Shown: positions 1-47,550 of the stretch, piece by piece | How the letters are laid out: each line of letters opens with the position of its first letter | Position numbering within the stretch: the stretch's first letter is position 1 | UHGV virus genome: UHGV-0023958 | Direction: 5' to 3' (one strand) | DNA: 64,000 bases | Origin: a virus | Notes under the pieces: generated by a model | What the model was told of the DNA's origin: nothing | Databases searched by the model: none | The model's input: the letters and a program-made list of their open reading frames with translations, nothing else | Program-made: the position numbers and the translations under genes

Positions 1-1
1 A

Positions 2-6000: not shown

Positions 6001-7525
6001 TTTACAATCCATTAAAGATTCAATTGGAGATATCAATAAACAAAGAGAAAAAGAGCTTAATTTAATAAAGGCTCGCGATGCGCTTGAAAATGCGAAAAAA
6101 GAAAAGAAGCTTGTTTATCGTGCCGGTATTGGATTTGTTGCTACGTCAGACTCTTCTGCAATATAGGAGGCTCAAAAGAAAGTTGATGATTTGCAAAATC
6201 AACAAACTCAAGAAGATTTACAATATCAAATAGATTAGCTTAATCAACAAAAAGCAATATTAGAGGCGATTAAGAATGATCCCAATATGGAGAGCTTAAA
6301 AAATACTGCGGAAATTATAAAAGATGAATTGATGTAGAAAACGCCAGGTGGTATTCTTGGGCTATTAAAAAATTTAGATCCAGAAACTTTTTCTGATAAT
6401 GTTCGAGACGGCATTGTGAAAAGTATTACAGAAAAAACGCTAGCCGTTGGGCAAGATACATACAGAAACATAAAGTTTTCGTTAGACACTTTGTTATAGG
6501 ATTATAAAGATTTTTATGATACAAAAAATTATGAAGGAAGTGGACAATCTGTTCAATCTATTTTAGAAGATCCGTCAAATATTTATTTTTCTCGCGTTTC
6601 AAATTCAATAAAAGAAAAACAAAGTGCTATAGAAAGTAAGAAAAAAGAGCTAGATAATTTAAAAGAGAAGTATTTTTCTGGCGATAATAAATCGTTATTA
6701 GGAAGTTATGGCGGAGCAATTGAAAATATACAAAATTATTATAAAGAAAAATATGGAACAGATGATTATTAGGATGTGTCAAAGTTAAAATTTAACAAAG
6801 AGGGTATTTTGTTAGATTTAGAAAATGCTTCTGGTGATTATCATGAAAATTATTTTACAATGGTCAAATACACAAATGAGGCGGTATCCGATGATTCTTT
6901 TACCGATAATAAACATCGAAAATATAAAAAATCACCCGGTAAATCTTGGGAAAGCTTGGGTAAATCATGGAACGATATTGTAGAAAATGATTTGTTATAG
7001 CCGGGAGATTTCGTTTTAGTAGATTTAAAAGGAAATAAACTCGCCTATGTTGGTGTTGATAAAAAATTATATTGGGTACAAACTAAAAAGCCGAAAGATT
7101 AGAGTTATGGTGGTTATGGCGATGTTAATGACACAACAAAAGGAAATAACCCCGATATAGATTATTCTAATATGCGAGCCAAAGGTGATTATAATTATCA
7201 AGGTGGCAACGTTCTCATTAACGAACTTGGTACAGAAGCTATTGTAACACCACAGGGTACGCTTACATCACTTCCTTCTCATTCTGGTATTGTTCCTGCC
7301 GATCTCACAAAGAATTTGTTTGCTCTTGGCGAGATTGCTCCAAATCTTATTGCGACTCTTCGTAATCAGATGCCAAATGTTTCTAAATCGAATTCTACTA
7401 GCAATGATAATTCTACGAATATCGGAACTGTTTATGCAACATTTAATGCAGATAGCGGATTTGATATGAACAGATTTATGATCGACTTGCGCTCTGCCGC
7501 TGGCAACACAAGACACAACAACTAA
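2..7525 (+). CDS. Tail tape measure protein, 5' partial, read with about 30 in-frame TAG codons as sense; ends at TAA 7523-7525.
   Basis: Track ORFs 71-442, 686-1162, 2213-2443, 2474-2656, 2675-4000, 4712-5128, 5402-5683, 5981-6166, 6776-7000 and 7172-7525 are all in frame 2. Codon-by-codon walks of 3998-4712 and 5126-5402 found only TAG between them, no TAA or TGA. The 2675-4000 segment has a TP901-type core (GASVDEANSLMTSYNKLAKELG...LKGFNLQ). Confidence 0.75.
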
Positions 7526-7536
7526 ATAAAATAATG

Positions 7537-7568
7537 AAATAACGCGGTTGAAATATATCGCGTTATTT
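7537..7568 (+). terminator. 10-bp inverted repeat aaataacgcg/cgcgttattt with a 12-nt loop immediately after the tape-measure stop; the U-tract is weak.
   Basis: Perfect complementarity seen in the sequence. Confidence 0.3.
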
Positions 7569-7595
7569 CAAAATAAATATATAAGGAGAAAATAT

Positions 7596-8306
7596 ATGTA
7601 TTATTTGGATTACGCAAAAAAAGTTGGAGATAGATATATTTTGAATTTTTTTGCTGATACAGCTGAAGATATCGCAGACGTTCCAACAAATACACCATAT
7701 ATCACACGTAATGGTACGAATTATGGTGTTCCGCTTGAAACATCTATTGTTACAGTTATTGAAAATGATGTTCGTAAGAATTATGTTCTTCAAAACGGTG
7801 TTTATATTGCGGGGGGTGATGTACCCTCTGTGCTTGGTATGCTCGAAGCAACAGAAAACAAAACATATAAAGCTTCTGACGAAGACCTCGAAGGGTATTC
7901 AACCGTAACTGTAAATGTAGAGCCGAAGTTGCAATCGAAATCTGTTACGGCAAATGGCACCGTTACACCTGATGCTTCTTACGATGGTCTTTCGCAGGTT
8001 ACGGTTAATGTTCCCCCTACAACTCCAAAATTACAAGCTAAAACAGCAACAATAAATGGCGTTGTTAAACCAGATGCTACTTATGATGGTTTGTCGCAAG
8101 TAACTGTAAACGTTCCAGCTACTCCTATGGAAACAAAGACGGTTGAGCCGAATTTCTCGAATGGCAGCGAGGTTCTTACACCGACAGAAGGCAAGGTTTT
8201 CTCTTCTGTGACTTTAACAAAACCCGCTACGTTGCTTCCCGAAAATATTAAAAAGGGAGTTATTATTTGTGGTATCGAGGGTACTTACGAAGCCGCTGGC
8301 GCATAA
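7596..8306 (+). CDS. Tail fibre / receptor-binding-like protein, paralogue A, with an internal tandem repeat of about 27 aa.
   Basis: RBS aaggag then ATG 7596. Its N-terminus MYYLDYAKKVGDRYILNFFAD...NGTNYGVPL is shared with the 9039 gene. The repeat is ANGTVTPDASYDGLSQVTVNVP, present twice. Confidence 0.5.
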   Translation: MYYLDYAKKVGDRYILNFFADTAEDIADVPTNTPYITRNGTNYGVPLETSIVTVIENDVRKNYVLQNGVYIAGGDVPSVLGMLEATENKTYKASDEDLEGYSTVTVNVEPKLQSKSVTANGTVTPDASYDGLSQVTVNVPPTTPKLQAKTATINGVVKPDATYDGLSQVTVNVPATPMETKTVEPNFSNGSEVLTPTEGKVFSSVTLTKPATLLPENIKKGVIICGIEGTYEAAGA

Positions 8307-8316
8307 TTGGTGATTT

Positions 8317-8976
8317 ATGATGAAAAAGTCTAAAAGAATTCTTATGATGATTGGTTTTTATTTTCTTTCATTCACTTGGGGGTTCATAATGAGTTTCATT
8401 GGGTTGTTTGTCGTTTTTGGTTCGTGCTTAATTACAAAAACAAAACCGAAGAGATTTGGTTTGTGTACGTATAATATTATTGGTGAGTATTGGGGCGGAT
8501 CTAATTGGGGATTTGGTTTTATCAGCGATAAAAGGTCTCCGAAATCAACTTATTGCCATGAACACGGTCACGGTTTACAAAATATAATTTTTGGACCGCT
8601 TATGCCGTTTATTGTTTGTATACCAAGTGCTGTCAGATATGGACTGTTTGATTGCGATACAGATAGAGATAAAATTAAGTTTTTATCGATTTTCTGTAGT
8701 TTGTTCGCTTTGGCGTTCTTTATTCCGATGATGATTGGTATATTTGCAAGCTGCTTGCCAGTAATTATTGTGTTCGGTATTTTGTTTTTATACGCTATCA
8801 TTTTGATTGTTTGGCTTGTATTTTTCGAAGCACCGAAACACAAAGGAAGACTGCACCCAGATTATGATTCCATCTGGTTTGAAGGGGATGCTACTCGCAG
8901 GGGAACTGCGTTTATGGAAAAGTGTTTTCCAGAAGAAATTTATAAAGTTAGTAGACTACCCATTAGCTTTAGCTGA
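8317..8976 (+). CDS. Polytopic membrane protein with an HExxH (CHEHGHG) zinc-metalloprotease-like motif.
   Basis: Several hydrophobic segments; the HEHGH motif; lies between the two fibre paralogues. Confidence 0.4.
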   Translation: MMKKSKRILMMIGFYFLSFTWGFIMSFIGLFVVFGSCLITKTKPKRFGLCTYNIIGEYWGGSNWGFGFISDKRSPKSTYCHEHGHGLQNIIFGPLMPFIVCIPSAVRYGLFDCDTDRDKIKFLSIFCSLFALAFFIPMMIGIFASCLPVIIVFGILFLYAIILIVWLVFFEAPKHKGRLHPDYDSIWFEGDATRRGTAFMEKCFPEEIYKVSRLPISFS

Positions 8977-9038
8977 TGGGTGATCCACATGAGTAGTTCA
9001 CAAAAAAATAAATATGATTAAAAAAAGAAGGGGGTATT

Positions 9039-9875
9039 ATGTTATATTTAGATTATGCGAAGCCCGTTGAAGGTGGTTATATACTTAACTTTTTCGCTGA
9101 TAAAGTTGAAGATATGGAAGCTATAACTGGCGGAAAAGAATTTGTTACAAAAAACGGCACGAATTACGGCGTTCCCCTTAAAGGTTCTACTGTCGTAATA
9201 ACTGCTCCCGATAAAGAAAAGAAGACGTTTATTCTTGATGAAAATGGCGAATGGAATGAAGGCGGATTAAACCCGAATGAGTTTTACACGAAGGAAGCTG
9301 CTGACGAAAAATTTATGGAAAAGGTAGTTAACATTAACCTCTCCCCTGATACTGCTACACGAGGCACTTTGACAGAAGAATAGTTAGCTACCTTGATGAA
9401 AGACGATAATAATTATATCACTCTTAACAAAGAAATCTATCGGTTAGCAGACAAGCAATACACCACAGAAATTATCTCCTATGTCAATACAGGTGTGGGT
9501 AGTAATATAATTTATATCACTGTTTCTACAAGAGCTTGGACTTTGGTTGTAGGGGAGAGGCCAAGTACGGTTTATAAACACGAGCTTACCCTCGTTGATA
9601 AAGATAATCAACACATAGAGATATCATTGATTAACAATTGGAAGTTCGAATATGACGATCAGAATTTACGTGAGTTGGTGGGTGGTGGCACGTACTCAAC
9701 TGTTGGACGTTCTGATATTAGCTTTGACGGTTCAGAGTTAGGTTTATACAATTTTTTTAGTATAGACGGTGCTACTGTAGATGGTTATGCTTATTATATT
9801 AAAACAGACGGAACAATAGGTATACAAGAGTTAAGTACAGTACGCGTTGATAGTGACTTGGTGACGGACTTTTAA
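9039..9875 (+). CDS. Tail fibre / receptor-binding-like protein, paralogue B, with one in-frame TAG at 9384-9386.
   Basis: Track ORFs 9039-9383 and 9393-9875 share a frame and are separated only by TAG. N-terminus MLYLDYAKPVEGGYILNFFAD...NGTNYGVPL. Confidence 0.55.
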
Positions 9876-10202
9876 CATTTAAACCTCATATCCCGCTGGT
9901 GAAAAAGACGCTACGGTGCATCTGGTGTGATAACTGGCGGAACCGCCACTTTAAGTGATGGTACGAGTGTACCGATAACTATAACTACCGCCGAAGCATA
10001 ATTCGGCATAAACACTTTATCTCCCTTTCCCCCAATTTGAGAGGGGAGGAATAATAAATAAAATTTAGGTTTTATTATACAGCCCAGTTTTTGTTCGGTT
10101 TTCTGTAAAAAAATCGAACACCAATAAGTTTGGGTGTGGCGAGTGAGATACCTCCCGCCCGCCACAACTCAATATAAAAAATAAAAGAGGAGGCAAGAGA
10201 TT

Positions 10203-13200
10203 ATGGCAGTTTTTAAACCGACAAATTGTTCGCCGTATTTAACATCTTTTGATATTACATATTTGAATGAAGGACCAATTTATTTTCAATGTAAAATAGA
10301 TACGTCAAACACAAATATTGACGGATATGCTATAACTGTTTATGATAGTGATAATCATAAAATTTTTCCGCATAATGGAAACGCAGTCGATAATATATCA
10401 TATATCAAAGATCTTCATTATGATACAACGAAGATTGGATCGATTATTTCTGATGATGGAATTTCTGATTTAAACACTGGTTTAAACGGAAGTTATTTAA
10501 AAATTCCTTTTGTTGTAAACAATGGTTAGAATAGTTATCTAACAAACACAACGAGAAAAAATGTTGTTGTGTATAATAAAAAAACAGACGGAAGTTATGA
10601 AATAAAAGATAATTCTGGAAATATCATTAAATTATATAACGGAAATCAGTATAAATGGACAATAACTTTATATTAGCTCGGACAAGACGCTGTTGATAAT
10701 AAGAAATCTAGGCCAGAAGAAATTAAATATTATGATATGACAGTGGCTTCTGGCAAAATTCTTGGATCTACCAATGAAAGAATCCAAAGCTATCCGAGCG
10801 ATCAAATTTATAATGATTACTTTTTACAATTATATAGTGCTCCAGTTGTTAATGTTGGTCCTGATTTTTAGATTACAAAAATTACAGGAGATGTAAAACA
10901 AGTTGGAACGAGGGTTAGAATTAAAGATTACGATTCGTATCTCGGACACATGTATTTACAAACTGGACAAGATGGTTTGTCTGAGAAAAATTTAGATATA
11001 TCAAATGTTTTCCAAGTTTTTAAAATGAGTAATAACCCAGATGATTTGGGCACAAAAGACAAAGTTGATTTTTGCATTAGTCAAAAATACTTTGTGCCAA
11101 AGTATTTCCAAGAATCTAAATCTGATTCATCGGCAGCATATTTATCTCAAACATTTGTTATTGCAAACGTCACTGGTTCAAGTGCCTCTGAAACTTTGGA
11201 AAAAGTGAAAGATGTTTATAATAAGCCGTTTTTTGAAAACACTGAAACTTTGTATGGTTTACCTTCATCTAATCAATATTACTCTAAAATTTTTAGTGGT
11301 TATGACGGAGACAATTCTCCCCCGGTTATATTTGGTTAGTCAAGAGTTTTATTGAATACGGAAAATAATAACAACGAATTAGATGAAAGTAGTGGGGCCG
11401 TAACTGGTACTAAGGATTATGGACCGAATGGAGGTAGTTCTAAGTTTAACGGTATATGGATTCCAAAAACACCAACTGTTGAAAAGATTGCAGAACATTA
11501 GAATGAAGGTAAATACACTGGAACAGATTATAAAATAACAATTCAATGGTATCGTTCTTCTGATGCTGATACATGGGGAGAAATCACAAACAAAGTCGTT
11601 TTAGATACCAACAATTTCAACAGTGATTATGATTCGTTCGCAGGTCAAAATCTTCAAGCATATACTTCTGAGCAAGAAGGAGAGCAAGTTTCAACCGGTA
11701 CTATTAATGATACGCTTATAAAATTTAACAACGAAGAACCTGTTGAAATTTATTCAAATAATTCTTACGAACATAACTATGGATTTATTTATAAAAACAA
11801 CATGGACATAACTGCATGGTTAGCGTCTATAACTGGTGAGACAACGCATGTACTAACTTATACATACATTTGTAAAAACACTTGGAGGGTAACTGGAAAG
11901 CCAAAGTGGCGCGAAGGCGATAATTTTAATGATTGGATTGGAAATCCTATTTATTTTATAGAGAAAGATAATAATATATTTCAAGACAAGCATCAATATC
12001 AAATTTTAGCATATCGTAATCCAAGTAACTCTTACTTACAAGCGGAGGTTAAGTTTAATTTAAATGAACAATATACTACTTATTATAGTGGGAATTATGG
12101 TTTAGATTGTTTTAATCCACCAGAGGAGTGGGAGAAGTGTGAAATACGCGTTGTTTGGAAAAATGATGCCGCAACAGATAAAAACTTAGATCTCCCAGAA
12201 GTTAATGATACAATTCAGTTTTTTATATATGATATAACAACTGGAATTATTAATTTTATTTCTCCGTCTACAGCCGTGTCTGTTGGAGATAAAATATTCA
12301 ATAAAGATAATTCTTCTTCGAATGTTGTGTTGTTAAATAAAACTGTTTGGGCGATTGGACAAGAGCAAGATGTTTCTACATATAAATATAAAAACAATGA
12401 AGGTCGGTTGGTAGACTATAATTATTATCCGATTTTAAACTTCAAAACAAACGATTTATATTCAATTAAAACATTCTTCCGTTCGAGCAGCGAAAATCAA
12501 TTTAGTTTATATGAACGTCCAACTGTCGATTTAGAATTATACGGCGTTTCAGGCGGTGCAAAGATAGAAATTAATGCTGCTGATAAAACATGCAAAACCT
12601 ATGAGAGAAGTATTTTTGCATAGGCTATTTATAATCAAACCAATTTGGTTCAGTGGAGAAATTATCAATGGTTTCTTTACGATGTTCCAAATATTTACGA
12701 AAACGCCGATGCGTATAAAACAGCAGCTGGATCTGCTTTGACAAAATATTTAAATCCGAATGATCTTATTTTGCAATCAGAAGTTGGTTATGATAAAGAG
12801 ATAAAATATACGTTTTATGGTTTGGCAGAAGAACACCATTGGTATATTATATCACTTGTTTTGACAGATCAATACGGAACAATTATTACAAAGAAAATTG
12901 CTGTTTATACTGATTTTACAGTGGAATTAGAACAAGATAAAGATTGGGTTAATTATGGTCTTCGGTGTGATTTAACCGGCGTCGATATGTGGTTTGAAGA
13001 TAAATACGGTTATATATATCCGAATTTGGGTGATAGAAATTATTTGATAGAAACCAACAACAAATATGCAAACAATCCAAATGGCGTTACGTATTCTGAT
13101 AGTGTTATGAATATATCTGATAACTCAGAAGGTGTTTTATATGATAGCGTATATAGCAATGACGGATTAAGTTCTTGGAATTCCCCTTCTAAACAAAATT

Positions 13201-14339
13201 TAACTTTTGATCAGAATAAAGGTATCGAATTTACGACGAGGGTTACAATAGACAGTTATCAATACTCGGCAGAATTTCTAAACGTTGTTATTAATACAGA
13301 TGGCGGAAACACAAAGAACTTGGTTTTGAAACCAGAAGATTTATATATAAGTTCTAATGATTGGCCAGAAGGTTATAAAGTTGGTTTCCCGAATTATGAG
13401 TGCTATAAGATTGGTAATTATGCTATCGGGGAAAATCCGAACGTATATGTTTATGGGAATGTAACAACCGATTTGTTCCCTAATTCTGATTCTTATAATT
13501 CTTGTATTAAATATAATAATTACTATATATCTTATATTCCTTCGAACGTAGTTCCCCTTGGAGCTAATAAACCTTCTATAAATATTCCAAATTCTTGGTA
13601 TTTTATCAATTATGATGAAGAAAATAGTGTTAAAGATATAATAAGTGATAAACCGATAAAGATAAATAAGATGATTTATGCTTTAGATGATCCCGATGGG
13701 CTATAGAACAAAGATGTATTTTATAATTTGCCAATATTTATAAGAAACGATTTATCTTTAAGCGGGAAAACAATAGAAAATTTACCTGATGGAACTAAGG
13801 TTTATAGTCTTTGGATGGATAAAAACGATGAGATAATTATACCAACAATAGTTGCTATAAATGAATCTGCTAATACTTTTTACTATTGTTATAGAAAAGT
13901 CAATAATCATCAAGAGGATATATCAGATAATATCTGGGAAGATACAAAAGAAAACGGAGAAGATAATATTTGGGAAGACGAAATTACAGTAGAAGATACT
14001 CAATCTGACCATTTAAAAAATAAAGATGGCTCGTTGAATACGATTAGAAATCGTTTGTATGGCAAAGTTTTATATTTTTATGTTCAGTGGAGCGGAAAAG
14101 AAAACGACGATATCACATACGGCATTGTTGGAAATGTATCACAAAGAGTAATAGATGTTGATTCTGAATTGTCGTTGACTTCTGTTAATCCAGTTGAGAA
14201 CAGGGTAATTACAACTGCTTTAAATTCAAAATTAGATACAACAACGTTATCTGATTAGAACACATTTGGTATATTTAAATGTTATACAGATAAATTTGGA
14301 ATATTAACTTTTGTTACTGGGGAGGGTGAAAATGGCTAA
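10203..14339 (+). CDS. Large tail / host-specificity protein of about 1378 codons with at least 8 in-frame TAG codons.
   Basis: ORFs 10203-10529, 10950-11339, 11802-12623, 12645-13706 and 13728-14258 are all in frame 0 with only TAG between them. The TAG at 14256 is followed in frame by TAA at 14337-14339, overlapping the next ATG as ATGGCTAA. Confidence 0.55.
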
Positions 14340-15927
14340 TATTAAGATAGGTATAAGTAGCGGTTATAAACCACAAGATTTTGGTGATCCTTCAAGAAAA
14401 TCAAGAGTTTCTTATTTATATGCTTATAACAAAGACGAATCTTCTCCGTCAAATAGAAATTTTCCAGCGATTTTTTCAAAGAAAGCATATAATGATATTA
14501 TGAACGACGAAAATAAAGATTTTTTATTGTTTGCGTTGAACTATACAGCTGAAAAAGTCAACGGTTTGACAATGCCGCTCCCAGATGGAATTGTTTCAGA
14601 AGGATTAAAAACGTTTCCGCAAAGGTCTATTTATAAAAGAGAAGTGTGGAGAGATGATGACAACCAGGTGCATTATGAAAAAATATTACACCCGGTTGTT
14701 TTACAAAACAATGTTTCTCGTGTTATAGACTATAATGTAACAACAAATAGAAATTATGAATATATAATTTATTTGACAGATCAAAGAGGAAGTCAAACTA
14801 TCCAAAGAGAAATACATTTCCCAATAACAACAAAGTGGGATTATTGGTCTATTTCTGAATTACATAGAACAAGCGAATAGAATGTTTATACAACATCCGA
14901 AAATGAAACGTGGTTATTTAAATTTAATGTTGAACCGGGGGAACAACAGCAGAATGTTTCTAAATCGCAACAAGATACGCTTGGTAAATACCCTGCTTTT
15001 TCTTATGGAAAAAAGAATTATACCACAAGTTCTGTTTCTTGTTTGCTTGGCTCCGAAATGCTTCCCTTTGACTTTTTAACAACGAATTATGTTCTTGTAA
15101 GAAACGAAGATGGTAGCGTTTCATGGGGTTTGGCGCAAGATGTCAGTGAGGTATATGGCGGATATACAGAATCTCGTTGGAAGAAACTATTAGATCAATG
15201 CGGAATGAACGAACGTGTTGTTAATATTTTTGACACAAAAATCACATCTAATGACAGTGTTGATATGTTGAATGAGTGGAAGAAATTGTGCAATTCTGGA
15301 AACCCGAAGTTGTATAAAAATTCCAAAGGTCAGTCGTTTATTATACAGATAACCGAATTTTCAAATTCAATTAATGAATCTTGGGATAAACAGCCGATAA
15401 CTATCAATTTTAGTTGGACAGAAATTGCAGATGCAAGCGATGCAAGAATAATACAAACAACCGAATTCACAACCGATACAAGCGGAAGTGTTTCTGGTGG
15501 AGGAGATGAGCCAGTGATGGATTATAATATTCTTTCTAATAAACCACAGATAAACGGTGTTGAGTTGGTTGGAAATAAAACGGATAAAGATTTATATCTG
15601 GAAGCAGAAGGTAATATTAAATCTATTTCTGGAACAAGTCCTTCTGTAAAATTAGACAACAACATCACTTATAATCTTGGTTCGATTAACGGATTAACAA
15701 CAACATTTGGTAGTATTAATGACGAATACTATAAAAATCGTCAGTGTTCACAGGCAGAAATTAACTTTACTGCCGCAAGTAATTTCACATATACACCTCC
15801 AGAAAATACAACAATTATAGGTGGAGATGTTGAGGGTGGAAAACTCAGTGCTAAAAAGGGCACTTCTTACAACATAGGATTTGGATATGTTGATAATGTT
15901 ATGTATGCCGTTTGTGGCATTAGATAA
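14332..15927 (+). CDS. Tail / baseplate-associated protein with one in-frame TAG at 14878-14880.
   Basis: RBS ggggaggg then ATG 14332. ORFs 14311-14880 and 15043-15927 share a frame and are joined across TAG. Confidence 0.5.
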
Positions 15928-15937
15928 AATATAAAAA

Positions 15938-16024
15938 GGAGAGGTAAATATGATTTATAATTCATCTTAGTTTTCTTTACAAGGAAGCGGAGAGGTAATT
16001 TCTATTACCTCTCCTTATTTATTT
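15938..16024 (+). promoter_or_regulatory. Alternative RNA structure. The SD ggagaggtaaat (15938-15949) has a copy ggagaggtaat (15989-15999) that forms an 11-bp hairpin with attacctctcc (16004-16014), loop ttct and a U-rich tail.
   Basis: Perfect 11-bp stem inside the first 22 codons of the 15950 gene. Its 3' arm is complementary to the genuine SD. Confidence 0.35.
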
Positions 16025-17200
16025 GATCAATATTATAATTTTTATTATATAGAAGATTATATTAAAAACAAACACATATAGCCGAGATTTAAAATATATG
16101 TTTTAAATGCCGATGAAACCGAGAGATATGAAATTCCAAATGGAGATATTATCAGCGGTAGTTATTCCGAAAACTATCAAAATGGTCAGAGGAGAACGTT
16201 GTCCTTTCAATTAAATAATAATAATGGAGAATATACGCCGTCAATTAATCATTTTTGGACTGGGCAGAAATTTTCTTTTTATATTGGATTCAATATGAAT
16301 AACGATGAAAATAGTGTTATTTGGTTTAGAAAAGGAATCTATTCTTGCCAAAATCAAAGCGTTGATAATTCATCTGATACGAAAACGGTTAGTATAGAAA
16401 CAGCTGATAAATTTTCTGTTTTGGAAGGGAAAAGCGGAACATTGGAGTATTCTTATACAATTAATGTAGGAGAGGATATTGAAGAAGTTATAAACAACAT
16501 ATTAAACACGGACAATGGTTCTGGTTTTATGTTGGATTCAAAAGGCATTGTTTATCATTCTTTATTTAAAGATAAAAAGGTAATTTCTCAAATATCAGAA
16601 TCTGCTGGCGCAACTTACGGTTCAATTATTTTAAAACTTGCAGAAATGCTTTCTGCAGAAGTTTTTTATAATGTCAACGGTAATTTGACGTTAATTCCGA
16701 AACAAGAAGTTATCAACGATTCCGACAAGCCGATTTTGTTTTCTTTTAATGCAGACAACGGGGATTTGATGACACATAATTACAGTTTTTCTTTCGAAGA
16801 TATTGTAAACAAGGTTATTGTTATCGGTTCAAATGTTAATGGAAGCACGTGTAGAGCGACGGCTGTCAACAACTCCGCAGATTCTCCAATCAGTGTATCA
16901 AGAATTGGCTATAGAACAGGATCAATAATTAATGATTCTTCGATTAATTCAGATTATCTTGCGCAGGAAAGAGCTGATTATGAATTAAGAAAAGTAAGTG
17001 TTGCTAAAACAAGTGTAAGTAACACGGCGTTATTGAATCCTTTAATAGAAGTAAACAATTTAATAGAAATTACCGATAATTTTTACGGTATAGAAAACGA
17101 AAAATTCCTTGTTCAATCGATTTCTTTTTCGTTAGATTATAGCGGAACGATGTCGATTTCAAGTTCAAATATAAACAATCTTTCATTTACGAATAGATAA
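15950..17200 (+). CDS. Tail protein with two in-frame TAG codons (15968-15970 and 16079-16081).
   Basis: Strong RBS aaggagagg then ATG 15950. Frame 2 stays open apart from TAG, reaching track ORF 16199-17200. Confidence 0.5.
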
Positions 17201-17210
17201 GGAGGGACGT

Positions 17211-18902
17211 ATGAATAAGACAGAACAAGCAAATGGCTTTTTAAATATAATACGCTCCATTATCAAAGAGGAACAAGATAAGCGCGACAGGGTTGAAATT
17301 TGTCAAATTGATAGCGTAAATGAAGATGGGACAGTAAATATAAAAATGCTTTCAGATTTTGAAACTGTTAGAATAATTCCAAATATTTCAAATCAATCGA
17401 TATATAGTTTTAAAAATGGAGATTTGGCTATTATTTATATGATTCAAAATCAATTATCGAACGCGTTTATAATTGCTAAATGCGGTCCGACAAATGAAAG
17501 TTTAAGAATATCTTCGTCGGATGGTGATACAACTGGCGGAGGCACTGTTATACAAAATATAACATATCAAAGCGGAACTACTAGCGGCGTAACATCTGTC
17601 AATGGTAAAACGGGCGAGGTTACTATTACTGCATAGGATCTTGGAGCAATTACTGAAATTCCAGATGTAACACAAATACAATCAACAGATATTTCTTCGC
17701 TAGTTTATGATACAACAAATGGTGCCGCTTTTGAAATAAATAACAGTATTATCTTTTCAGATGGAACAAAAAATAACCCACTTTTAAAATTCAATTTGCC
17801 CATTATCGGCATCAATGGTATTAGTATAGATAAATCTAATGGTAAAAATGTTCTGGAAATTTCAGGAAAAGATTTGCAAGATTTAATTAATTCTATATCC
17901 TTGACTAGTGGTACGAATAATGGAACTTTAAAATTAACCGTTGGTACAACTATTGTTGATAATATTAAAGTTACGGGTTTTGATAAAAAGCAAGACCAGC
18001 TTAGCGAGAGCCAATTAAATGCTGTTAATTCTGGAATAACTTCAGAAAAAGTAACCACTTATGATGAATACCAGTCTTAGATTAATTCTAAATACACAAA
18101 ACCCGATGGCGGTATTCCGAAGTCAGATTTGTCTTCGGATGTTCAAAGTTCTTTGGTGAAAGCCGATTCTGCCTTACAAACCCATCAGAAAATTACAACT
18201 GGTAGTGCGAACGGAACGATTGCCGTTGATGGGACTGATGTTTCTGTTAAAGGATTAGGTTCTCTTGCGTACAAAAATTCTTTGACAAAAACAGATGTTG
18301 GACTTGGAAACGTTGATAATACATCGGATGAAGCCAAACCAATTTCTACCGCAACACAAACAGCCTTAGATGGGAAAGTAAATACTACAACAACGGTAAA
18401 CGGTCACGCGTTATCTTCTAATGTTACTATTACACAATCGGATGTCGGTTTGGGTAATGTTATTAACGCAGGGCAAGATCCAACACCAACATCCGATTCT
18501 ATAAATTATGTTACTTCTGGTGGTGTTAAAAGTTATGTTGACAACGGGTTAAACAAAAAAGCGGATTTACTAGTTAATGAATCAACGGTTACTACTGTAT
18601 AGTCTGGCCGCTTGTATGAGTTTACTGATATTCACAATCCATTTAGTTTATCTATCAATATGGATACATTTAAAACATCTAATGATGTTTCGCAGATTTA
18701 TTTCACGGCAGCAGCTAATTTTGATGTTGTCCTTAATGTTTCTTCTGGTGTTAGAATAATCGGAGATGGTGTTAATGCGAGTACCAAAAAAATTTCTTGT
18801 GTTAAAGGCAATTCGTATTATTTTACTTTTGGTTATACAAAAAAAGGTGTTTCTATTGTAAGTAATATTGATGCAAATTGGAGTGAGATAGCAACGGTAT
18901 AA
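17211..18902 (+). CDS. Tail fibre protein with GLGNVDNTSD-type fibre repeats and three in-frame TAG codons.
   Basis: ORFs 17211-17636, 17796-18080, 18129-18602 and 18612-18902 are all in frame 0. Repeats TDVGLGNVDNTSDEAKPIS and SDVGLGNVINAGQ. RBS aaggaggg. Confidence 0.6.
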
Positions 18903-19004
18903 TATTTATAATATATAATAATATTATAATATATATATAATAAAATAAAACAAATAAAAAGAAAATAAAGTAACTTTTTATTTTTGAAAATAAGGCGAAA
19001 TCCC

Positions 19005-19033
19005 TTGACTTTGGGGTGATAATATGTTATAAT
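19005..19033 (+). promoter_or_regulatory. Sigma70-type consensus promoter: TTGACT, 17-bp spacer, TATAAT.
   Basis: Exact hexamers and spacer; upstream of dUTPase. Confidence 0.55.
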
Positions 19034-19098
19034 ATACTCCAAAGCCAAGGGTGAAAGTCTTTGGTTTAGAAAGTTTTAAGAAAAGAGGTCAGTTTTAT

Positions 19099-19575
19099 AT
19101 GAGAAGTTTTGAAGAAGTAAAACCAGAATTTAAGAAGTTTCCAAATGTAAAAACTCGTTTGCCAGAAAGAAGCGATGCAAAGTCGGCAGGTTACGATTTT
19201 TATAGTAAGGAAAATTATGTTATTAATCCGAAAGAATCGCACGTTTTTTGGACAGATGTGAAAGCACAAATGTACTTTGATAACGTGCTTAATATATACG
19301 CCCGTTCGGGACTTGGTTGTAAATACGGTGTAGTTCCCAAGAACTGTGTCGGAATTATTGATGCCTCCTATTACGGGAATGAAAAGAATGACGGCGGAAT
19401 CGGTGTTTGTCTCGAAAATAAAGGTGATGAGCCGTATTCCGTGAAAGTTGGCGATCGTATTGCACAGGGTGTTTTCACGAAGTATTATATTACCGATGAC
19501 GATAAATATGTTTATGGGAAGGAAAAAGATAATGGCAGAAAGGGTGGTTTCGGTTCTTCCGACGAGGTGAAATAA
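19099..19575 (+). CDS. dut: dUTP pyrophosphatase.
   Basis: Motifs AGYDF, RSGLG, GIIDASYYG, GDRIAQ and RKGGFGSS; RBS aagagg. Confidence 0.85.
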   Translation: MRSFEEVKPEFKKFPNVKTRLPERSDAKSAGYDFYSKENYVINPKESHVFWTDVKAQMYFDNVLNIYARSGLGCKYGVVPKNCVGIIDASYYGNEKNDGGIGVCLENKGDEPYSVKVGDRIAQGVFTKYYITDDDKYVYGKEKDNGRKGGFGSSDEVK

Positions 19576-19784
19576 TGAAAGTTGTTTTGTATACTGTGCA
19601 TTGTCCAAAATGTAAAATTTTAGAAAAGAAGTTAGAACAATCAAAAATCAAATATGATGTTTGTGAAGATTTGGATTTGATGTTGGCAAAGGGATTTCAA
19701 ACGGCTCCAGTTCTCGATGTTGACGGTAGAATTATGGAATTTAAGGAAGCCGTTCAATGGGTTAAAGAACAAATTGGGGGTTGA
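19575..19784 (+). CDS. nrdH: NrdH / glutaredoxin-like redoxin.
   Basis: CPKC active site in a 69-aa thioredoxin-fold-sized protein directly upstream of nrdD. Confidence 0.5.
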   Translation: MKVVLYTVHCPKCKILEKKLEQSKIKYDVCEDLDLMLAKGFQTAPVLDVDGRIMEFKEAVQWVKEQIGG

Positions 19785-21706
19785 TGCGTATGGAAATAAG
19801 TATTAAGCTTGATTCGGATTTCGAAGAACAAATTAAGTATTTAAAAAACAAATACGGAGATGAAATTACAAAAATCAATGGATTGTCAGATGGGCAATTA
19901 GATTATACTCACTTTATTGACAATTTTATTGATAGTGACAATGTTGCAAATGCCACAATTGATCCAAATGCAAATGCTGGCACTAAAGATGTCCGTGGTT
20001 TACTTGATGAAATGAATAAACCACATTCGAAATTGTTGAGTTTAAATAAAATATACTATGAGGTCAAGAAAAAATACGGAAAAGAATTAGCTAATAAATG
20101 GCTCGAAGATGAATGGTCTGGTGCTTTATATTTGCATGATGCCCCGTCATCATCTTTTTATTCTTATTGCTACGCTTATGAGTTACAGGGTTTGGCAGAA
20201 AAAGGTTTGTATTTTTTGCCAAAAAGTAACACCGAACCTCCGAAACATTTAACAACCTTTTTCGCTCATTTACGAGAATTTATTGTGTGGGTATCCAATA
20301 GAACCGCTGGTGCGTGTGCGCTTCCAAGCTTTTTCGTTTATTCCTGGTATTTTTGGAATAAAGATGTTCAATCTGGATATTATTTAAAAGATCCCGAATA
20401 TTATAGAAGACAGATGTTTCAGCAATTTATTTTTGAAGTAAATCAAATTCATACAAGAATTGTTCAAAGTGCTTATACGAATTTGATTATTATGGATAGA
20501 AATTATATTACTGAAATTTTTGGCGGAAGAGAATTTCCAGATGGAAGTTTAGTAATTGATCACGTTGAAGACATTATTGAACATCAAAAAGCGTTTATGG
20601 AAACCGAATGTGAAATTAGAAAACAGGTATTCCATACATTTCCAGTTTATACGTATTCCCTTCTTTATCAAAATGGAAAATTTGTAGATGAAGAATTTGC
20701 GCGTTGGTGTAATAAACAAAATCTCCAATGGTATGATAGTAATTTTTATGTTGGAGATAGCGTTACTAATCTTGCTTCGTGCTGTAGAATGTTAAACGAT
20801 TTGACAAAACAGAAACAATTCCAGTCAAGTATTGGCGGAAGTCTTGTTGAAATCGGCTCCGTCAAAGTAAGCACAATTAATCTTATGAGAATTGCCATTG
20901 AATCAAATGGTGATAAAGATAAGTTTATTGAAATTTTAACCGATAGGGTTAAAATGAATATGTTTGTTCTTGATAGAGTTCGTCATATTATTCAAAGGAA
21001 CATAGAAAAGGGGTTACTTCCAAATTATTCGTACGGTGTTATTAATTTGGAAAAACAAACCACGACTAATGGTTTAACTGCAATGTATGAAGCCATTGAA
21101 AAAATGGGAATGACAGAAACAGATGAATTTGGTTATGTAAAATATACCCAAGAAGGAATTGATTTTGCTAGTAAAATAATGGATACCGTAAATTATTTGC
21201 AAGATCATGCTGGTTTTGATTATAATGTTTCTCTCGAAATTATTCCAGCAGAATCTGCAAATGTGAAATTGTGTAAAAAAGATAATATTTTATATAATTT
21301 ACATGATAAATTTATTTATTCTAATCAATGGACGAGTTTAATGGCAAAATGTAGTATGAAAGAAAGAATTAAACTTTCGTCTCTTCTCGACAAAAAAGCT
21401 GGCGGTGGTCAAATACTTCACATTTCATTGGAGGGTGCAAGATTAACAGAAGAAGAGAGTTGGAATATGTTAAATTATATTGCTAAAAGTGGTGTAATTT
21501 ATTTTGCATTTAATCCAAAACTTTCCTTATGTGAAAAACAACATACTTTCTTTGGCGATGTTTGTCCTATTTGTGGAAGACCAAAGGTTGACGAAGCAAG
21601 TAGAATTGTTGGATATTTGGTTGCTACTTCTACGTATTCCAAAGATAGAAAAGAGGAATATGAGAATAGAAAATGGTATGCAATTGGCGATGACCAATAT
21701 TTATAA
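19784..21706 (+). CDS. nrdD: Anaerobic ribonucleoside-triphosphate reductase, class III.
   Basis: About 640 aa. C-terminal Zn ribbon CPICGRP and glycyl-radical-like SRIVGYL. Confidence 0.8.
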   Translation: MRMEISIKLDSDFEEQIKYLKNKYGDEITKINGLSDGQLDYTHFIDNFIDSDNVANATIDPNANAGTKDVRGLLDEMNKPHSKLLSLNKIYYEVKKKYGKELANKWLEDEWSGALYLHDAPSSSFYSYCYAYELQGLAEKGLYFLPKSNTEPPKHLTTFFAHLREFIVWVSNRTAGACALPSFFVYSWYFWNKDVQSGYYLKDPEYYRRQMFQQFIFEVNQIHTRIVQSAYTNLIIMDRNYITEIFGGREFPDGSLVIDHVEDIIEHQKAFMETECEIRKQVFHTFPVYTYSLLYQNGKFVDEEFARWCNKQNLQWYDSNFYVGDSVTNLASCCRMLNDLTKQKQFQSSIGGSLVEIGSVKVSTINLMRIAIESNGDKDKFIEILTDRVKMNMFVLDRVRHIIQRNIEKGLLPNYSYGVINLEKQTTTNGLTAMYEAIEKMGMTETDEFGYVKYTQEGIDFASKIMDTVNYLQDHAGFDYNVSLEIIPAESANVKLCKKDNILYNLHDKFIYSNQWTSLMAKCSMKERIKLSSLLDKKAGGGQILHISLEGARLTEEESWNMLNYIAKSGVIYFAFNPKLSLCEKQHTFFGDVCPICGRPKVDEASRIVGYLVATSTYSKDRKEEYENRKWYAIGDDQYL

Positions 21707-21711
21707 TAAAA

Positions 21712-22665
21712 ATGGACAACAGAAGATTATCAACTATTGAAAATGAAAGAGTAAAATTAGATTATAATATTGTTAAAAATAAAATGGTTGATTGCAAAAA
21801 TCAAAAAGATTTAGCAAAACAACTTGGTTGTGGTGTTAATAAATTAAGAGAATATTTGATTGAAAACGAATTATATGATGAATATTGTTCTATTCATAAT
21901 ATTCCAAATAAAGCAAGAAAAGAAATTGTTTGCTGTGTTTGTGGTGAAAAGAAATCTGTTTATTTATTGAACGAAAAACCATATTGTAAGAAACATTATA
22001 ATCAAATGTATCGATATGGCAAAATATATGAAAATACAATATATGATAAAAATGAATATATTTTTGAAGAAGATATTGTAAAAATCATATTAAAAGATAA
22101 ATATCAAAATTATAAAAGCGAATCAATCATAGACGTTTCCGATTATGAAAAGATTTGTAATTACAAGTGGTACGAATCTTATGGATATTGTGTAACGAAA
22201 AGTAATAATTGCGATGAAGGTATTGATATAGCAAATATTCTATTTGATAATTATGCAGATAGATTCGATCATCAAAATCATAACAAATTAGATAATCGTA
22301 GGTGCAATTTGCGACCAGTAACAGCACATCAAAATTCAATGAATATGGGCAAAAAATGCACGAATACTTCAGGAGTTACTGGTATACAAAGACAAAATAA
22401 AACAAGTGAAAAGTGGATTGCAACTATAGCTTATAACTATAAACCCATATGGCTTGGGGTTGATTATAGTTTCGACAGAATGGTAATCGAAAGATTAAAA
22501 GGGGAAGCAAAATATTTTAAAGAATTTTCTCCAAATTATAATTTAGAGAAAAAATTAATATGTTTAAATTATGTTTCCAGAGATGATAACTTGAATCATT
22601 ATATAGAAATGGATTTAAATGGAAATATTATAACAAATATTGTTGTTTCTAATGATTTAAAATGA
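21712..22665 (+). CDS. HNH homing endonuclease with an AP2 DNA-binding domain, inserted between nrdD and nrdG.
   Basis: HNH motif NRRCNLRPVTAHQNSMN and an AP2-like SGVTGIQRQNKTSEKWIATI; Cys-x2-Cys pairs. Confidence 0.6.
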   Translation: MDNRRLSTIENERVKLDYNIVKNKMVDCKNQKDLAKQLGCGVNKLREYLIENELYDEYCSIHNIPNKARKEIVCCVCGEKKSVYLLNEKPYCKKHYNQMYRYGKIYENTIYDKNEYIFEEDIVKIILKDKYQNYKSESIIDVSDYEKICNYKWYESYGYCVTKSNNCDEGIDIANILFDNYADRFDHQNHNKLDNRRCNLRPVTAHQNSMNMGKKCTNTSGVTGIQRQNKTSEKWIATIAYNYKPIWLGVDYSFDRMVIERLKGEAKYFKEFSPNYNLEKKLICLNYVSRDDNLNHYIEMDLNGNIITNIVVSNDLK

Positions 22666-23138: not shown

Positions 23139-23159
23139 TTTTAAACAAGGAGGTTGTTT

Positions 23160-24365
23160 ATGGAAAACGTATTGATTGAATTTAAAAATAAAGCTAAAAA
23201 GCAAAACATTATTAAGGCAGGGTTGTGTTCTGTAGCAATCTCCTTGTTATTTAATATTCCGTTTTTGATAGCTTTTTGGATTATGGATTATAAATATAAA
23301 TTTATAATTTGCGCTGGAATTTTTATTGTCGGAATCTCCGTTTTGTTTCCAGTTTTATATTTCAAAAAGTTTAAATATACCGAAATTCAATTAGCAAAAA
23401 TAATTGACGATCTTGGTTTAGAAGAACGTGTTTTGACAATGATTGAATTAAAAGATAATAATTCTTTTATTGCAAAGAAGCAAAAAGAAGATACGTTGAA
23501 CGTCCTGAAAACCGTAGAGGCGAATGATTTAAAAGGAAAATATAAAAAACAATCATTTCTTTCGATATTTTCAACTGCATTGGCATCTTTGGTAATTGCT
23601 TTATCTTTAATGTTTCCAAATATTAGAGAAACTATTATCGCTCGCGGAGAACCAAAATATACAATTGAAGTGTCTGCAGAAGGTCTCGGTTTTGTGATTG
23701 ATTATTCTAAATATGAAAATCAATCTTTGATAAATGCCGTTTCTAAAAAACAAGAACAAGATGAAATCAATAAAATTAACAATAAAGAAATAGTTGAATT
23801 AAAACAATTCCCGACTGTATTTTCAAATAGAATTTCCGTAAATTATAGATGTTTCGAAGATATTGATGCAACTATGGTTTTAGACGGTGCCAACTTTGCA
23901 GATGTTTCTTATAGAATACAATCCGATGAAACACATATTTTAATGGCACTTCCTTATAAAGGATATGTGTTTGTTGGTTGGTCAGACGGTTGTGCTTCTC
24001 CGTTCAGAGAAATTGACAATTATTCCACCGACTTGATTGCATTGTTCGATGAAGTAAGTTCCGTAGGTGAAGACTTACCAGATAAACAAAAAGAACCGGG
24101 AGACAAAGATGGATCTGATGGTGGTGAGTCTGATGGAATTGGACCCGAAGGAAATGGAACCGGTAAAACAAACAATGATAATAGTTGGGGCGATGGAGCG
24201 AAAGGTTCGCCAGCAAATCAAGTAATTAACGGTGAAACTTATTATGGTGATATTTTTAATCAAAGCTATCAAGAGGCTGTTGAAAGAATAAAGAATGATA
24301 CAAATTTAACAGATGCACAAAAGAAAGCTATAACTGATTACTTTGAATCAATAAGAAAAAATTAA
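23160..24365 (+). CDS. Membrane protein with two or three N-terminal TM helices and a Gly/Asp-rich C-terminal region.
   Basis: RBS aaggagg then ATG 23160; hydrophobic segments. Confidence 0.4.
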   Translation: MENVLIEFKNKAKKQNIIKAGLCSVAISLLFNIPFLIAFWIMDYKYKFIICAGIFIVGISVLFPVLYFKKFKYTEIQLAKIIDDLGLEERVLTMIELKDNNSFIAKKQKEDTLNVLKTVEANDLKGKYKKQSFLSIFSTALASLVIALSLMFPNIRETIIARGEPKYTIEVSAEGLGFVIDYSKYENQSLINAVSKKQEQDEINKINNKEIVELKQFPTVFSNRISVNYRCFEDIDATMVLDGANFADVSYRIQSDETHILMALPYKGYVFVGWSDGCASPFREIDNYSTDLIALFDEVSSVGEDLPDKQKEPGDKDGSDGGESDGIGPEGNGTGKTNNDNSWGDGAKGSPANQVINGETYYGDIFNQSYQEAVERIKNDTNLTDAQKKAITDYFESIRKN

Positions 24366-24378
24366 AGGAGTATTATTT

Positions 24379-25188
24379 ATGATACCTAATAAAACAAAAG
24401 CATCTGAATATAGGGTGCGGACATTAGATAGAAATGATTTAAATGAGAAAGGAACGATTTATATTGGTTAGGGCGGTACTTCTACTATTGATAAAGTTGA
24501 AAATATTTCCAATGTAGCGGCAATTAGTAAGCCAGATGATGATTTAAACAAATCTGGTTATTATGCTTTAACGCTTGGAGGAAATGCAAATCAAGATGGA
24601 ATTTGGGGCAGATTTTTACATGAGGTAGATTGCCAAATAACACCAACTTTATTTCAATTAAACGAAGGAGCGCCATCTCTTCATAATCCTTATAAATATG
24701 TAATTCGCGGTGGGTATAAGTCGTTAAATATTAAAAAAAGTATATTTGATTCAACACTTACATATATAATGGATTATAATTCAAATTTATCATCTTTTTC
24801 TTCTGTTGATTAGAAAATATTTGCAAAATTATCTATGAGGGGATTTGTAGAATATGATACTCCGTTTGAAGTATATTCTTCTTTTGTTGCCTCTCAGAAG
24901 ACTGGAAGTTCTTGGGAGTTATATCCTTTGAATTTTTCACCGATTAATATTACAAAATTAAACGATAATTATATGCGAAATTTCCAAAGCATTGTTTTTT
25001 GTTCAAATGATACACCGTGGCAAGAAACTGCGGATGGTTTTCAATTAAACCTTCATGCAATCGGTATGGGAAATACATTAGAAGAGCAAAAATTATATTA
25101 TTAGAAAAATGGCACTGGTGAAATTCTAACTGCTAATCTATCAAATATTTCATAGATTAGAGTAACTCAAATGTCTATTATTTTTTAA
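24379..25188 (+). CDS. Hypothetical protein needing TAG decoding (four in-frame TAG codons), sitting inside the otherwise standard-code early region.
   Basis: RBS aaaggag then ATG 24379. Frame 1 is open through TAGs at 24469, 24811, 25102 and 25153 to TAA at 25186-25188, and contains track ORF 24835-25104. Confidence 0.5.
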
Positions 25189-26748: not shown

Positions 26749-26823
26749 TGGGGAATAGCATAACGGTAGTGCGGTGCTCTCTAAAAGCACTCTGTGTCGG
26801 TTCGAGCCCGACTTCCCCCGCCA
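26749..26823 (+). tRNA. Amber suppressor tRNA, anticodon CUA, with Gln-like features U1, G10 and G73.
   Basis: Cloverleaf: acceptor tggggaa/ttccccc; D-stem gcat/gtgc; anticodon stem gtgct/agcac with loop cTCTAaa; T-arm gtcgg-ttcgagc-ccgac; encoded CCA. Confidence 0.75.
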
Positions 26824-46056: not shown

Positions 46057-46143
46057 GCGCAGGTATTCCGTTAAGGAGACGGGACGGACTGTAAATCCGT
46101 TGCCGTAAGGCTCTAGTGGGTTCGATTCCCTCACTGCGCACCA
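46057..46143 (+). tRNA. tRNA-Tyr (GTA), type II with a long variable arm.
   Basis: Acceptor gcgcagg/actgcgc; anticodon stem acgga/tccgt with loop cTGTAaa; variable stem gcc-gtaa-ggc; T-loop ttcgatt; CCA. Confidence 0.55.
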
Positions 46144-46822: not shown

Positions 46823-46899
46823 TGCTTCTTAGCTCAGCTGGTTAGAGCGCGTGACTGTTAATCACGATGTCCAGAGTTCGAATCTCTGAGAAGCAGCCA
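46823..46899 (+). tRNA. tRNA-Asn (GTT).
   Basis: Canonical cloverleaf tgcttct-ta-gctc-agctggtta-gagc-g-cgtga-cTGTTaa-tcacg...cagag-ttcgaat-ctctg-agaagca-g-cca. Confidence 0.85.
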
Positions 46900-47363: not shown

Positions 47364-47437
47364 GCGATATTAGTGTAGTGGTAACACAATTGATTTCCAA
47401 TCAATTATCATCAGTTCAAATCTGATATATTGCTCCA
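47364..47437 (+). tRNA. tRNA-Gly (TCC).
   Basis: gcgatat-ta-gtgt-agtggta-acac-a-attga-ttTCCaa-tcaat-tatc-atcag-ttcaaat-ctgat-atattgc-t-cca. Confidence 0.8.
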
Positions 47438-47550
47438 GCACCCTACGGTAGGTATACATACGCGTAGTCCGAAGTCATTGGCGGATAGAGTAAGTAGAAG
47501 CTATAGATTCTAAGCACCAGCATCGCTCTCGACACTAACGGATGCTACCC

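Follow-up and report, generated by a model that had tools for sequence, protein, structure and literature searches.

What is the purpose of a second copy of a Shine-Dalgarno (SD) sequence that is located within the early codons of the very gene that the first copy precedes, and that is itself followed by its perfect complement? This arrangement is found at the start of a tail protein gene in the virus genome UHGV-0023958, of which we have analysed a window of 64,000 nt (a segment of an uncultured gut phage, with 33% G+C); all positions given here are those of the window. The parts of the element are listed in Table 1: the SD that adjoins the ATG at position 15950, an in-frame TAG at codon 7 ("TAG-7"), the SD copy, which forms an 11-bp stem with its complement across a tetraloop, and a U-rich tail; we refer to the stem-loop as "hairpin A" and to the complementary segment as the "anti-SD". 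A sequence-only reading of the window had described the SD, its copy, the 11-bp complement, the tail and the TAG at codon 7, all of which hold on direct reading, and had noted that the element resembles a translational attenuator, or a transcription terminator internal to the open reading frame (ORF), whose structure could be decided by ribosomes that stall at the TAG.

We favour, with moderate confidence, the reading that the element acts as an RNA switch on the translation initiation of the tail gene, where the SD would be sequestered and the hairpin would serve as a decoy; its role is most likely translational coupling or limitation, rather than a transcription stop. As far as the sequences can tell, it is the SD:anti-SD pairing in distant clades that decides between this reading and its alternatives. 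The comparison covers 27 related loci taken from IMG/VR and a further 74 taken from human gut and rumen metagenomes (130-165 kb phage contigs).

Two mutually exclusive partners of the anti-SD

The anti-SD can be paired in two mutually exclusive ways: in state A, it pairs with the SD copy, forming the local 11-bp hairpin A, while in state B, it pairs with the true SD region (15936-15947), forming a 12-bp helix that we refer to as "helix B". The sequence-only reading was right that the true SD could be sequestered by the 3' arm of the hairpin, and it understated the pairing: with 12 bp against the 11 bp of the hairpin, the pairing of the SD reaches beyond what the hairpin needs, and helix B can be extended by a further 5 bp. 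Hairpin A occupies codons 14-22 of the 416-codon ORF, or codons 14-25 if the tail is included, and the anti-SD segment (16004-16016) encodes I-T-S-P.

The element is not due to chance. The 10-mer GGAGAGGTAA has just three copies in the 64 kb, i.e. the SD, the decoy and the complement at 16005-16014, all located inside 77 nt; perfect hairpins with stems of 11 bp or more number 4 distinct ones in the 64 kb, hairpin A among them, where mononucleotide shuffles yield 0-1. The predicted free energy (dG) of hairpin A alone is -16.4 kcal/mol, with 5 G-C pairs in the stem, and the folding z-score of the region is approximately -4. An origin of the SD copy by duplication has been considered and rejected: the likeness is confined to the 10-nt core, and the flanks are no more alike than is expected by chance in AT-rich sequence.

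States A and B are predicted to be about isoenergetic: the constrained ensemble energies on 15925-16030 are -29.5 kcal/mol for state A and -31.0 kcal/mol for state B, and the predicted probabilities on 15880-16060 are P(A) 0.21 and P(B) 0.38. The barrier between the two states is ~11 kcal/mol by a heuristic direct-path estimate, and therefore the exchange between them should be slow compared with initiation. In state A, the SD keeps merely a weak predicted pairing with the pyrimidine tract that follows TAG-7. The SD of this downstream cistron is thus base-paired in a stable predicted structure (15936-15947 with 16005-16016); its predicted accessibility (0.02) is the lowest of the 57 putative gene starts in the window, the next lowest being 0.15, and the folding z-score of the same start (-4.07) is the most negative of the 57.

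Position of the element within the translated gene

The sequence-only reading had placed the hairpin within the early codons of a tail gene, after a recoded TAG, and had named a translation start downstream of 16024 as the observation that would overturn this placement. The ORF, the presence of a tRNA with the anticodon CUA and the comparison of starts across the family all bear the placement out. At the N-terminus of the homologous proteins, a short stretch of variable residues precedes a conserved motif, SG[DE][IV], and almost all clades have a strong SD and a start codon 27-45 nt upstream of the Gly codon of the motif; in the window, the motif is S-G-E-V, and the ATG at 15950 is located 39 nt 5' of its Gly codon. 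Since the conserved motif is encoded by the 5' arm of hairpin A and the homologues have their starts upstream of it, both the hairpin and TAG-7 are located within the translated ORF, and translation does not start beyond 16024.

Two other starts have been examined and rejected. Downstream of the hairpin, the lone in-frame candidate after the TAG at codon 44 is the TTG at 16199, which has a 3-nt spacer, and the motif located 5' of it is conserved. Internal initiation from the SD copy is unlikely: there is no ATG, GTG or TTG at a workable spacing (there is only an ATT at 16004), and the TAG at codon 44 follows downstream. Gene callers that start the tail gene after the TAG, or after the hairpin, would mis-annotate it.

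Conservation within the clade of the window

The clade of the window comprises 19 members, with 80-94% nucleotide identity across the tail gene, and 36% of the tail-gene sites are variable among the 19 sequences. The block 15938-16020 has 5 variable sites, against no fewer than 22 in any other stretch of 83 nt along the gene (mean 31.8, sd 4.6), and the gene's four longest invariant runs all fall within this block. Both stems and the SD are invariant; in the SD region 15936-15947, the sole exception is position 15936 in the L010 group, while the 5' strand of the optional helix B extension is not kept in L011/L012. The five variable sites are distributed as follows: one is the sole variable position within hairpin A, at 16003 in the loop (TTCT to TTCA in 6 of the 19 members); two are located in the weak hairpin directly 3' of TAG-7 (15970-15988), one in its loop and one an A-to-G change that turns a U-A pair into U-G; a second A-to-G change of the same type is found elsewhere in the block; and the fifth is the last base of the block. 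Judging from this alignment, selection on the element is strong. Scans of IMG/VR with DNA patterns, made for further variants, have returned the same 12 contigs only, with the SD and the hairpin identical in all of them.

Complementarity between the SD and the early coding sequence in distant clades

In several other clades, the SD or the spacer of the tail gene is complementary to a stretch that is located 40-75 nt into the ORF (codons ~18-22), with sequences that differ from those of the window. The SD/spacer segments and their intragenic complements are GGAGAGGTAA and TTACCTCTCC in the window clade, GGCGGAGTAA and TTACTCCGCC in L017/L020/L063, GCGGAGTAA and TTACTCCGC in L037, GCGGAAT and ATTCCGC in L040, AGAGATAGGA and TCCTATCTCT in L064, GGGATAAT and ATTATCCC in L072, GGGGTAG and CTACCCC in L047, and GAGGAA and TTCCTC in L061. 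The complement of the L017 clade occurs at the same codons as that of the window, within 1 nt; 3 of its 10 pairs are changed on both sides, and all of them are Watson-Crick pairs. Across the clades, the SD:anti-SD complementarity exists in at least 7 sequence versions, with compensatory changes on the two sides. These segments have been read directly, and formal pair-counting has been dropped because the MAFFT alignment misaligned the SD segments.

The predicted duplex energy between the segments -20 to -1 and +25 to +100 is -14 kcal/mol or lower in 12 of the 31 family representatives, against 2 of the 50 other genes of the window. Between L017 and L063, too, the conserved stretch begins at the SD and ends with the anti-SD, beyond which conservation falls. 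Local competitors for the anti-SD are also found on the Ser-Gly codons of other clades, i.e. AGCGG/CCGCT in L037 and L040, CGGCG/CGCCG in L017 and a split stem in L047, and hairpins on these codons are moderately enriched (mean z-score -1.19, with 7 of 32 below -2, against -0.32 and 8% in the controls). The conserved feature appears to be the sequestration of the tail-gene SD by the gene's own early coding sequence, with a full-strength decoy added in the window clade. Of the sequence-only reading, the pairing of the 3' arm with the true SD is what the comparison of relatives backs best. In view of these helices and their compensatory changes in other clades, the term "translational attenuator" of the sequence-only reading is broadly right, while its internal terminator is not supported, as is discussed below.

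The genetic codes of these relatives are mixed. L018 appears to be TGA-recoded (long ORFs cover 7476 nt, up from 4518 nt), L022 and L085 appear to be TAG-recoded, L013, L016, L017 and L069 have a weaker TGA signal, and the others look standard. The other SD-pairing clades have no early stop codon in the gene, except for L018/L019/L094 (~3749-3805), where an in-frame TGA occurs at codon 18 of the tail gene, at the tip of a small hairpin.

A second gene of the window, which starts at 23160 and has no TAGs (23140-23250), has an SD region, AACAAGGAGGTTGTT, that is complementary to AGCAATCTCCTTGTT, located ~75 nt into the ORF (predicted duplex dG -21.1 kcal/mol). It is the sole further case of this sort among the 50 control genes, and intragenic masking of the SD may be a recurrent device in this phage.

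Proposed coupling with the upstream gene

Under the favoured reading of an SD-sequestering switch, the SD would be buried in state B, and ribosomes would be unable to load unaided. The trigger would most likely be the ribosome that ends the translation of the upstream gene at the TAA at 15925-15927, thereby melting helix B at its outer end. In most clades, 13-30 nt separate the stop of the upstream ORF from the start; in the window, the TAA is located 22 nt ahead of the tail-gene ATG, and the distance from it is 3 nt to the extended helix and 8 nt to the 12-bp core. When the positions up to 15937 are blocked in the model, mimicking the terminating ribosome, P(B) falls from 0.38 to 0.01 and P(A) rises from 0.21 to 0.89; in view of this fall and of the closeness of the upstream stop to the helix, we propose coupling by unmasking. 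The decoy (15989-15999) would then capture the released anti-SD, leaving the SD open for one or a few initiations, and the first translating ribosome would unwind the decoy hairpin, so that the switch could reset. As a net effect, the synthesis of the tail protein would keep pace with, and not outrun, the translation of the upstream structural gene, which itself depends on TAG suppression, as it contains one in-frame TAG.

Several points weigh against this reading. All energetics are nearest-neighbour predictions, made without ribosome or protein, and the stems are invariant in the window clade, so that hairpin A and helix B are not separable by covariation there. The main loose end is the L013/L014 clade, where the same codons form a strong hairpin (12-14 bp, z-score approximately -6) with little pairing of the SD, and therefore the hairpin may have a further role. 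The helices of the different clades may be convergent rather than homologous, and a looser metric (the SD paired anywhere from +25 onwards), which we have not used as it does not discriminate, gives 16 of 31 family members and 16 of 50 control genes. Lastly, hairpin A together with its U-rich tail passes for a terminator by simple criteria.

The recoded TAG at codon 7

The sequence-only reading had linked the choice of structure to a ribosome that stalls at TAG-7, and this link is not supported. A ribosome with the TAG in its A site covers neither the SD, nor its copy, nor the 3' arm; when such a ribosome is modelled by blocking 15950-15980, P(A) and P(B) are 0.26 and 0.52, against 0.21 and 0.38 in the free RNA, and their ratio is unchanged. 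Furthermore, the same SD/anti-SD design is found in relatives that have no early stop codon.

In favour of a link, all 19 clade members have TAG-7, whereas none of the other 10 TAG columns of the tail gene is fixed; since TAG-7 is located inside the near-invariant block, its fixation is inseparable from the general conservation. Moreover, no other TAG in the window comes nearly as early in its gene, the remaining ones occurring at codon 31 or later. The 48 nt that follow the 51 in-frame TAGs fold no better than those that follow 222 Gln codons (-5.05 and -5.18 kcal/mol, respectively; p = 0.43). A read-through signal similar to PYLIS or SECIS has been rejected: the sequences downstream of the other 50 TAGs show no general excess of structure, and the main stem starts 18 nt after TAG-7. 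Among all stretches that follow an in-frame TAG, an 8-bp, G+C-rich hairpin, TCTGGTGG/CCACCAGA, at 2201-2223 ranks second in structure; it begins 13 nt after the TAG at 2186, within the giant ORF 110-7525. A programmed frameshift or a ribosome hop has been rejected by inspection only, as no slippery heptamer is located by the SD-like sequence and the hairpin; the genome-wide recoding of TAG with a suppressor tRNA already explains the TAG.

TAG-7 may be a cheap abort, or a slow step, right after the start. It is a long shot that TAG-7 acts jointly with the decoy hairpin and the U-rich tail to sense the code switch of the phage itself: before the tRNA with the anticodon CUA builds up, ribosomes would abort after a hexapeptide and the hairpin would form behind the polymerase, so that distal tail-gene transcription and translation would both be halted until the TAG is decoded; once it is decoded, the ribosome would enter the hairpin and both blocks would be lifted. 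If true, this would be the first cis-acting RNA device to read out the reassignment of a stop codon.

Transcription termination as an alternative

Hairpin A could instead be a leaky intrinsic terminator or attenuator inside the ORF, lowering the transcription of the last two tail genes (15950-18902), an explanation that we regard as unlikely; in a variant of it, the terminator might be overridden, in the manner of pyrBI, by a ribosome that has passed TAG-7 and closely trails the polymerase, blocking the formation of the hairpin. The build of the element is that of a terminator, with an 11-bp stem, 5 G-C pairs, a tetraloop and the free energy given above, followed by UUAUUUAUUU, and a consensus scan flags hairpin A; the scan of 10000-22000, however, gives 5 terminator-like sites, where 5.3 are expected from shuffles. 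The tail UUAUUUAUUU, with 8 of 10 U in most clade members, is coding sequence (P-Y-L-F), and it becomes UUAUUACUAU or UUAUUCCUCU in L011/L012/L033, where the stem is invariant; in other clades, no U-tract follows the equivalent helices and hairpins. The element is located within a translated ORF that has a family-conserved N-terminus, rather than at the end of a transcription unit, and termination would leave unexplained both the 10-nt match of the SD to the 5' arm and the frozen codons 1-13.

The fixation of TAG-7 in 19 of 19 members, 18 nt before the stem, would suit the overridden terminator, as a ribosome that is stopped there leaves the hairpin free to form; the modelled ribosome at the TAG, though, does not bias the ratio of the two states, and with merely 65 nt between the ATG and the 3' arm, the override would need a very tight coupling of transcription and translation. 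Since the alternative helix shares the 3' arm of the supposed terminator, it is not an antiterminator, as would be expected of an attenuator of the trp or pyrBI type.

Also in favour of termination, the junction before the tail gene appears from the sequences to be a transcript boundary in some relatives: a GC-rich hairpin, CCCCGCGA-gaaa-TCGCGGGG in L022, is located upstream of the tail gene in L022/L023/L025 (~3697-3720), and promoters of the sigma-70 type precede the tail gene in L015 (TTGACA-17-TATATT, near-consensus, inside a 13-bp inverted repeat; L015/L024/L056, ~3680-3715) and in L047 (TTGACC-17-TATAAT, ~30-60).

Other roles of the hairpin and of the palindrome

It is rather improbable, in our judgement, that the hairpin serves another purpose at the RNA level, to which its similarity with the SD is secondary, i.e. 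as an exonuclease block, as a processing site that sets different stabilities of the upstream and the downstream late mRNA, or as the operator of a phage RNA-binding translational repressor. The recurrence of hairpins on the Ser-Gly codons of several clades (7 of 32 with a z-score below -2, against 8% of controls) would fit such a role, as would the hairpin of the L013 clade, where the pairing of the SD is weak; it is also the sequence, and not the structure alone, that is frozen across 83 nt, as is typical of protein-bound operators. The hairpin sequences, on the other hand, are wholly different between the clades, which argues against a shared protein operator; a search of Rfam 15 has given no match to the element at the gathering threshold, with only chance-level matches (E of at least 0.87), and the compensatory changes between SD and anti-SD would have no explanation.

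We hold it to be very improbable that the element is a DNA-level feature, or an evolutionary by-product without an RNA function, such as a palindromic protein site with three half-sites or a module linker that promotes recombination. The perfect 26-bp palindrome with its third, direct copy, and the sharp bounds of the conserved island, located at a gene junction of a mosaic tail module, would be in keeping with it; the repeated unit, though, is the ribosome-binding site itself, and since the 10-mer is absent elsewhere in the 64 kb, it is not a dispersed binding motif. The substitutions in the window clade and in the L013 clade are of the type that is tolerated as G-U pairs, and the other clades retain the complementarity rather than the sequence.

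Genetic code and gene neighbourhood

The phage is recoded, with TAG read as an amino acid, in a manner similar to genetic code 15: in-frame TAGs are limited to the + strand structural genes (1-18902 and 24379-25188), where reading TAG as sense joins fragmented ORFs into long ones; a tRNA with the anticodon CUA is encoded in the window; and the TAG columns are swapped mainly with CAA and CAG among the relatives. On account of these swaps, TAG is most likely decoded as Gln. Most columns favour Gln, but at codons 141 and 331 of the tail gene, the alternatives to TAG are Ser codons (TCN), and at codon 103 the alternative is TGG. The suppressor tRNA is isolated, between the structural block and the downstream TAG-free genes, ~20 kb from a cluster of five ordinary tRNAs (Tyr, Gln, Asn, Gly, Val) at 46057-47627; the label "Pyl" that it receives from ARAGORN rests on its anticodon alone.

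The product of the tail gene is a tail protein of PHROG 1887, with a weak match to a baseplate hub. No close DNA-level relative has been found among the deposited phages, and the protein-level matches are only to tail proteins of Thomasclavelia phages with ~27% identity and to minor tail proteins of Gordonia.

The TAG-containing structural block ends at 18902, and in the stretch that follows (18903-19098) there is an AT-only palindromic region (18906-18929 and 18962-18984). At 19005-19033, TTGACT-17-TATAAT with an upstream TG is the top promoter-like site of the scanned region, and it probably starts a differently timed transcription unit of TAG-free genes. Further downstream, a HEARO RNA (Rfam RF02033, 121.7 bits) at 58865-59072 is located immediately 5' of a 409-aa ORF (59100-60329) in which motifs similar to RuvC (GIDAGSKHIG) and HNH (CQYCHG...HHI...CETCH) can be seen by eye; the region 58865-60329 looks like a unit of the IscB/omega-RNA type within the phage.

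Table 1. Parts of the element, neighbouring genes and suppressor tRNA, with their positions in the 64,000-nt window.
Feature	Position	Strand	Remarks
Upstream structural gene, unannotated	14332-15927	+	531 codons, one in-frame TAG; TAA stop at 15925-15927
5' strand of the optional 5-bp extension of helix B, AUAAA	15931-15935	+	pairs with 16018-16022
True SD region AAGGAGAGGTAA	15936-15947	+	core GGAGAGG at 15938-15944; 5' strand of helix B (SD-sequestered state)
Shine-Dalgarno GGAGAGGTAAAT	15938-15949	+	adjoins ATG 15950
Tail protein gene	15950-17200	+	416 codons, ATG start, TAA end; TAGs at codons 7 and 44
Recoded TAG, codon 7	15968-15970	+	fixed in 19/19 clade members
Weak 8-bp hairpin GUUUUCUU/AAGGAAGC	15970-15988	+	directly 3' of TAG-7
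Pyrimidine tract UUUUCUUU	15971-15978	+	alternative weak partner of the SD once hairpin A has formed
SD copy (putative decoy) GGAGAGGTAAT	15989-15999	+	5' arm of hairpin A; encodes G-E-V-I
Tetraloop TTCT	16000-16003	+	loop of hairpin A
3' arm of hairpin A ATTACCTCTCC	16004-16014	+	perfect 11-bp complement of the SD copy
3' strand of helix B TTACCTCTCCTT	16005-16016	+	12 bp with the true SD
U-rich tail TTATTTATTT	16015-16024	+	codons P-Y-L-F; 16018-16022 can lengthen helix B
Second in-frame TAG, codon 44	16079-16081	+	polymorphic in the clade: TAG/TCG/CAA/CAT/AAG
Tail-fibre gene	17211-18902	+	next gene after the tail gene
tRNA with anticodon CUA (suppressor)	26749-26823	+	5' end UGGGG; makes TAG codons readable

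Comparison with known systems

The masking of an SD in connection with translational coupling is classical, with the long-distance interaction between the coat and replicase genes of the RNA phage MS2 and the atpHA genes of E. coli as examples. The element resembles these systems in that the downstream SD is located in a helix, only a few nucleotides separate this helix from the end of the upstream cistron, and the ribosomes of the upstream gene are the natural opener; it differs from them in that the anti-SD is located inside the coding sequence of the downstream gene itself (codons 19-23), and in that an adjacent exact copy of the SD as a decoy would make the structure bistable, rather than a simple mask.

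The logic of SD, anti-SD and anti-anti-SD is known from translational riboswitch platforms. As in riboswitches and RNA thermometers, three segments with mutually exclusive pairings would set the freedom of the SD; unlike them, the element has no aptamer or ligand domain and no match in Rfam, its competing segments are all coding, except for the SD, and its likely effector is the ribosome. Delayed folding, i.e. a kinetic trap, is known from the maturation-protein gene of MS2, where, as here, a long-range helix locks the SD at equilibrium, a local hairpin that forms earlier could allow a brief window of initiation, and a low-copy virion protein is concerned; the MS2 element is located in the 5' untranslated leader of the genome RNA, whereas the present one belongs to an internal cistron of an operon.

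With the trp and pyrBI leaders and with Rho-independent terminators, the element shares a stem-loop that is followed by a U-rich stretch, as well as a 6-codon stretch that ends in a stop if the TAG is not suppressed. It differs from them in its position inside a structural gene, in a U-tract that is interrupted and not conserved, and in a shared 3' arm that leaves no antiterminator; moreover, relatives of this gene have the helix without a stop codon or a U-tract.

Stop-codon recoding has been described as a lock on late genes in gut phages (Borges et al., bioRxiv 10.1101/2021.08.26.457843; Babkin et al., PMC10607447), and the present phage resembles these phages in using TAG for an amino acid, in encoding a suppressor tRNA and in having its TAGs confined to structural genes. 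The words "hairpin", "terminator" and "Shine" are absent from the preprint of Borges et al., which therefore describes no cis-acting RNA structure tied to a recoded codon. Our literature search for a terminator or an attenuator linked to alternative-code phages has returned nothing relevant. To our knowledge, late-gene control in recoded gut phages has so far been explained solely by in-frame stops and suppressor tRNAs.

To this, the element would add a second, RNA-structural layer of control at one tail gene, where early codons of the gene itself would lock the SD and the decoy is located within the ORF. The same logic occurs, with other sequences, across 130-165 kb phages of the human gut and the rumen, in TAG-recoded, TGA-recoded and apparently standard-code lineages, and therefore it looks like a long-kept means of setting the dose of a low-copy tail or baseplate protein. 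What appears to be new, in comparison with the systems above, is that the regulated gene supplies both the anti-SD and the exact SD decoy from its own coding sequence, and that the design recurs with covariation across gut phages of mixed genetic codes; with its compact size (~85 nt), the element is a candidate for a ribosome-operated toggle.

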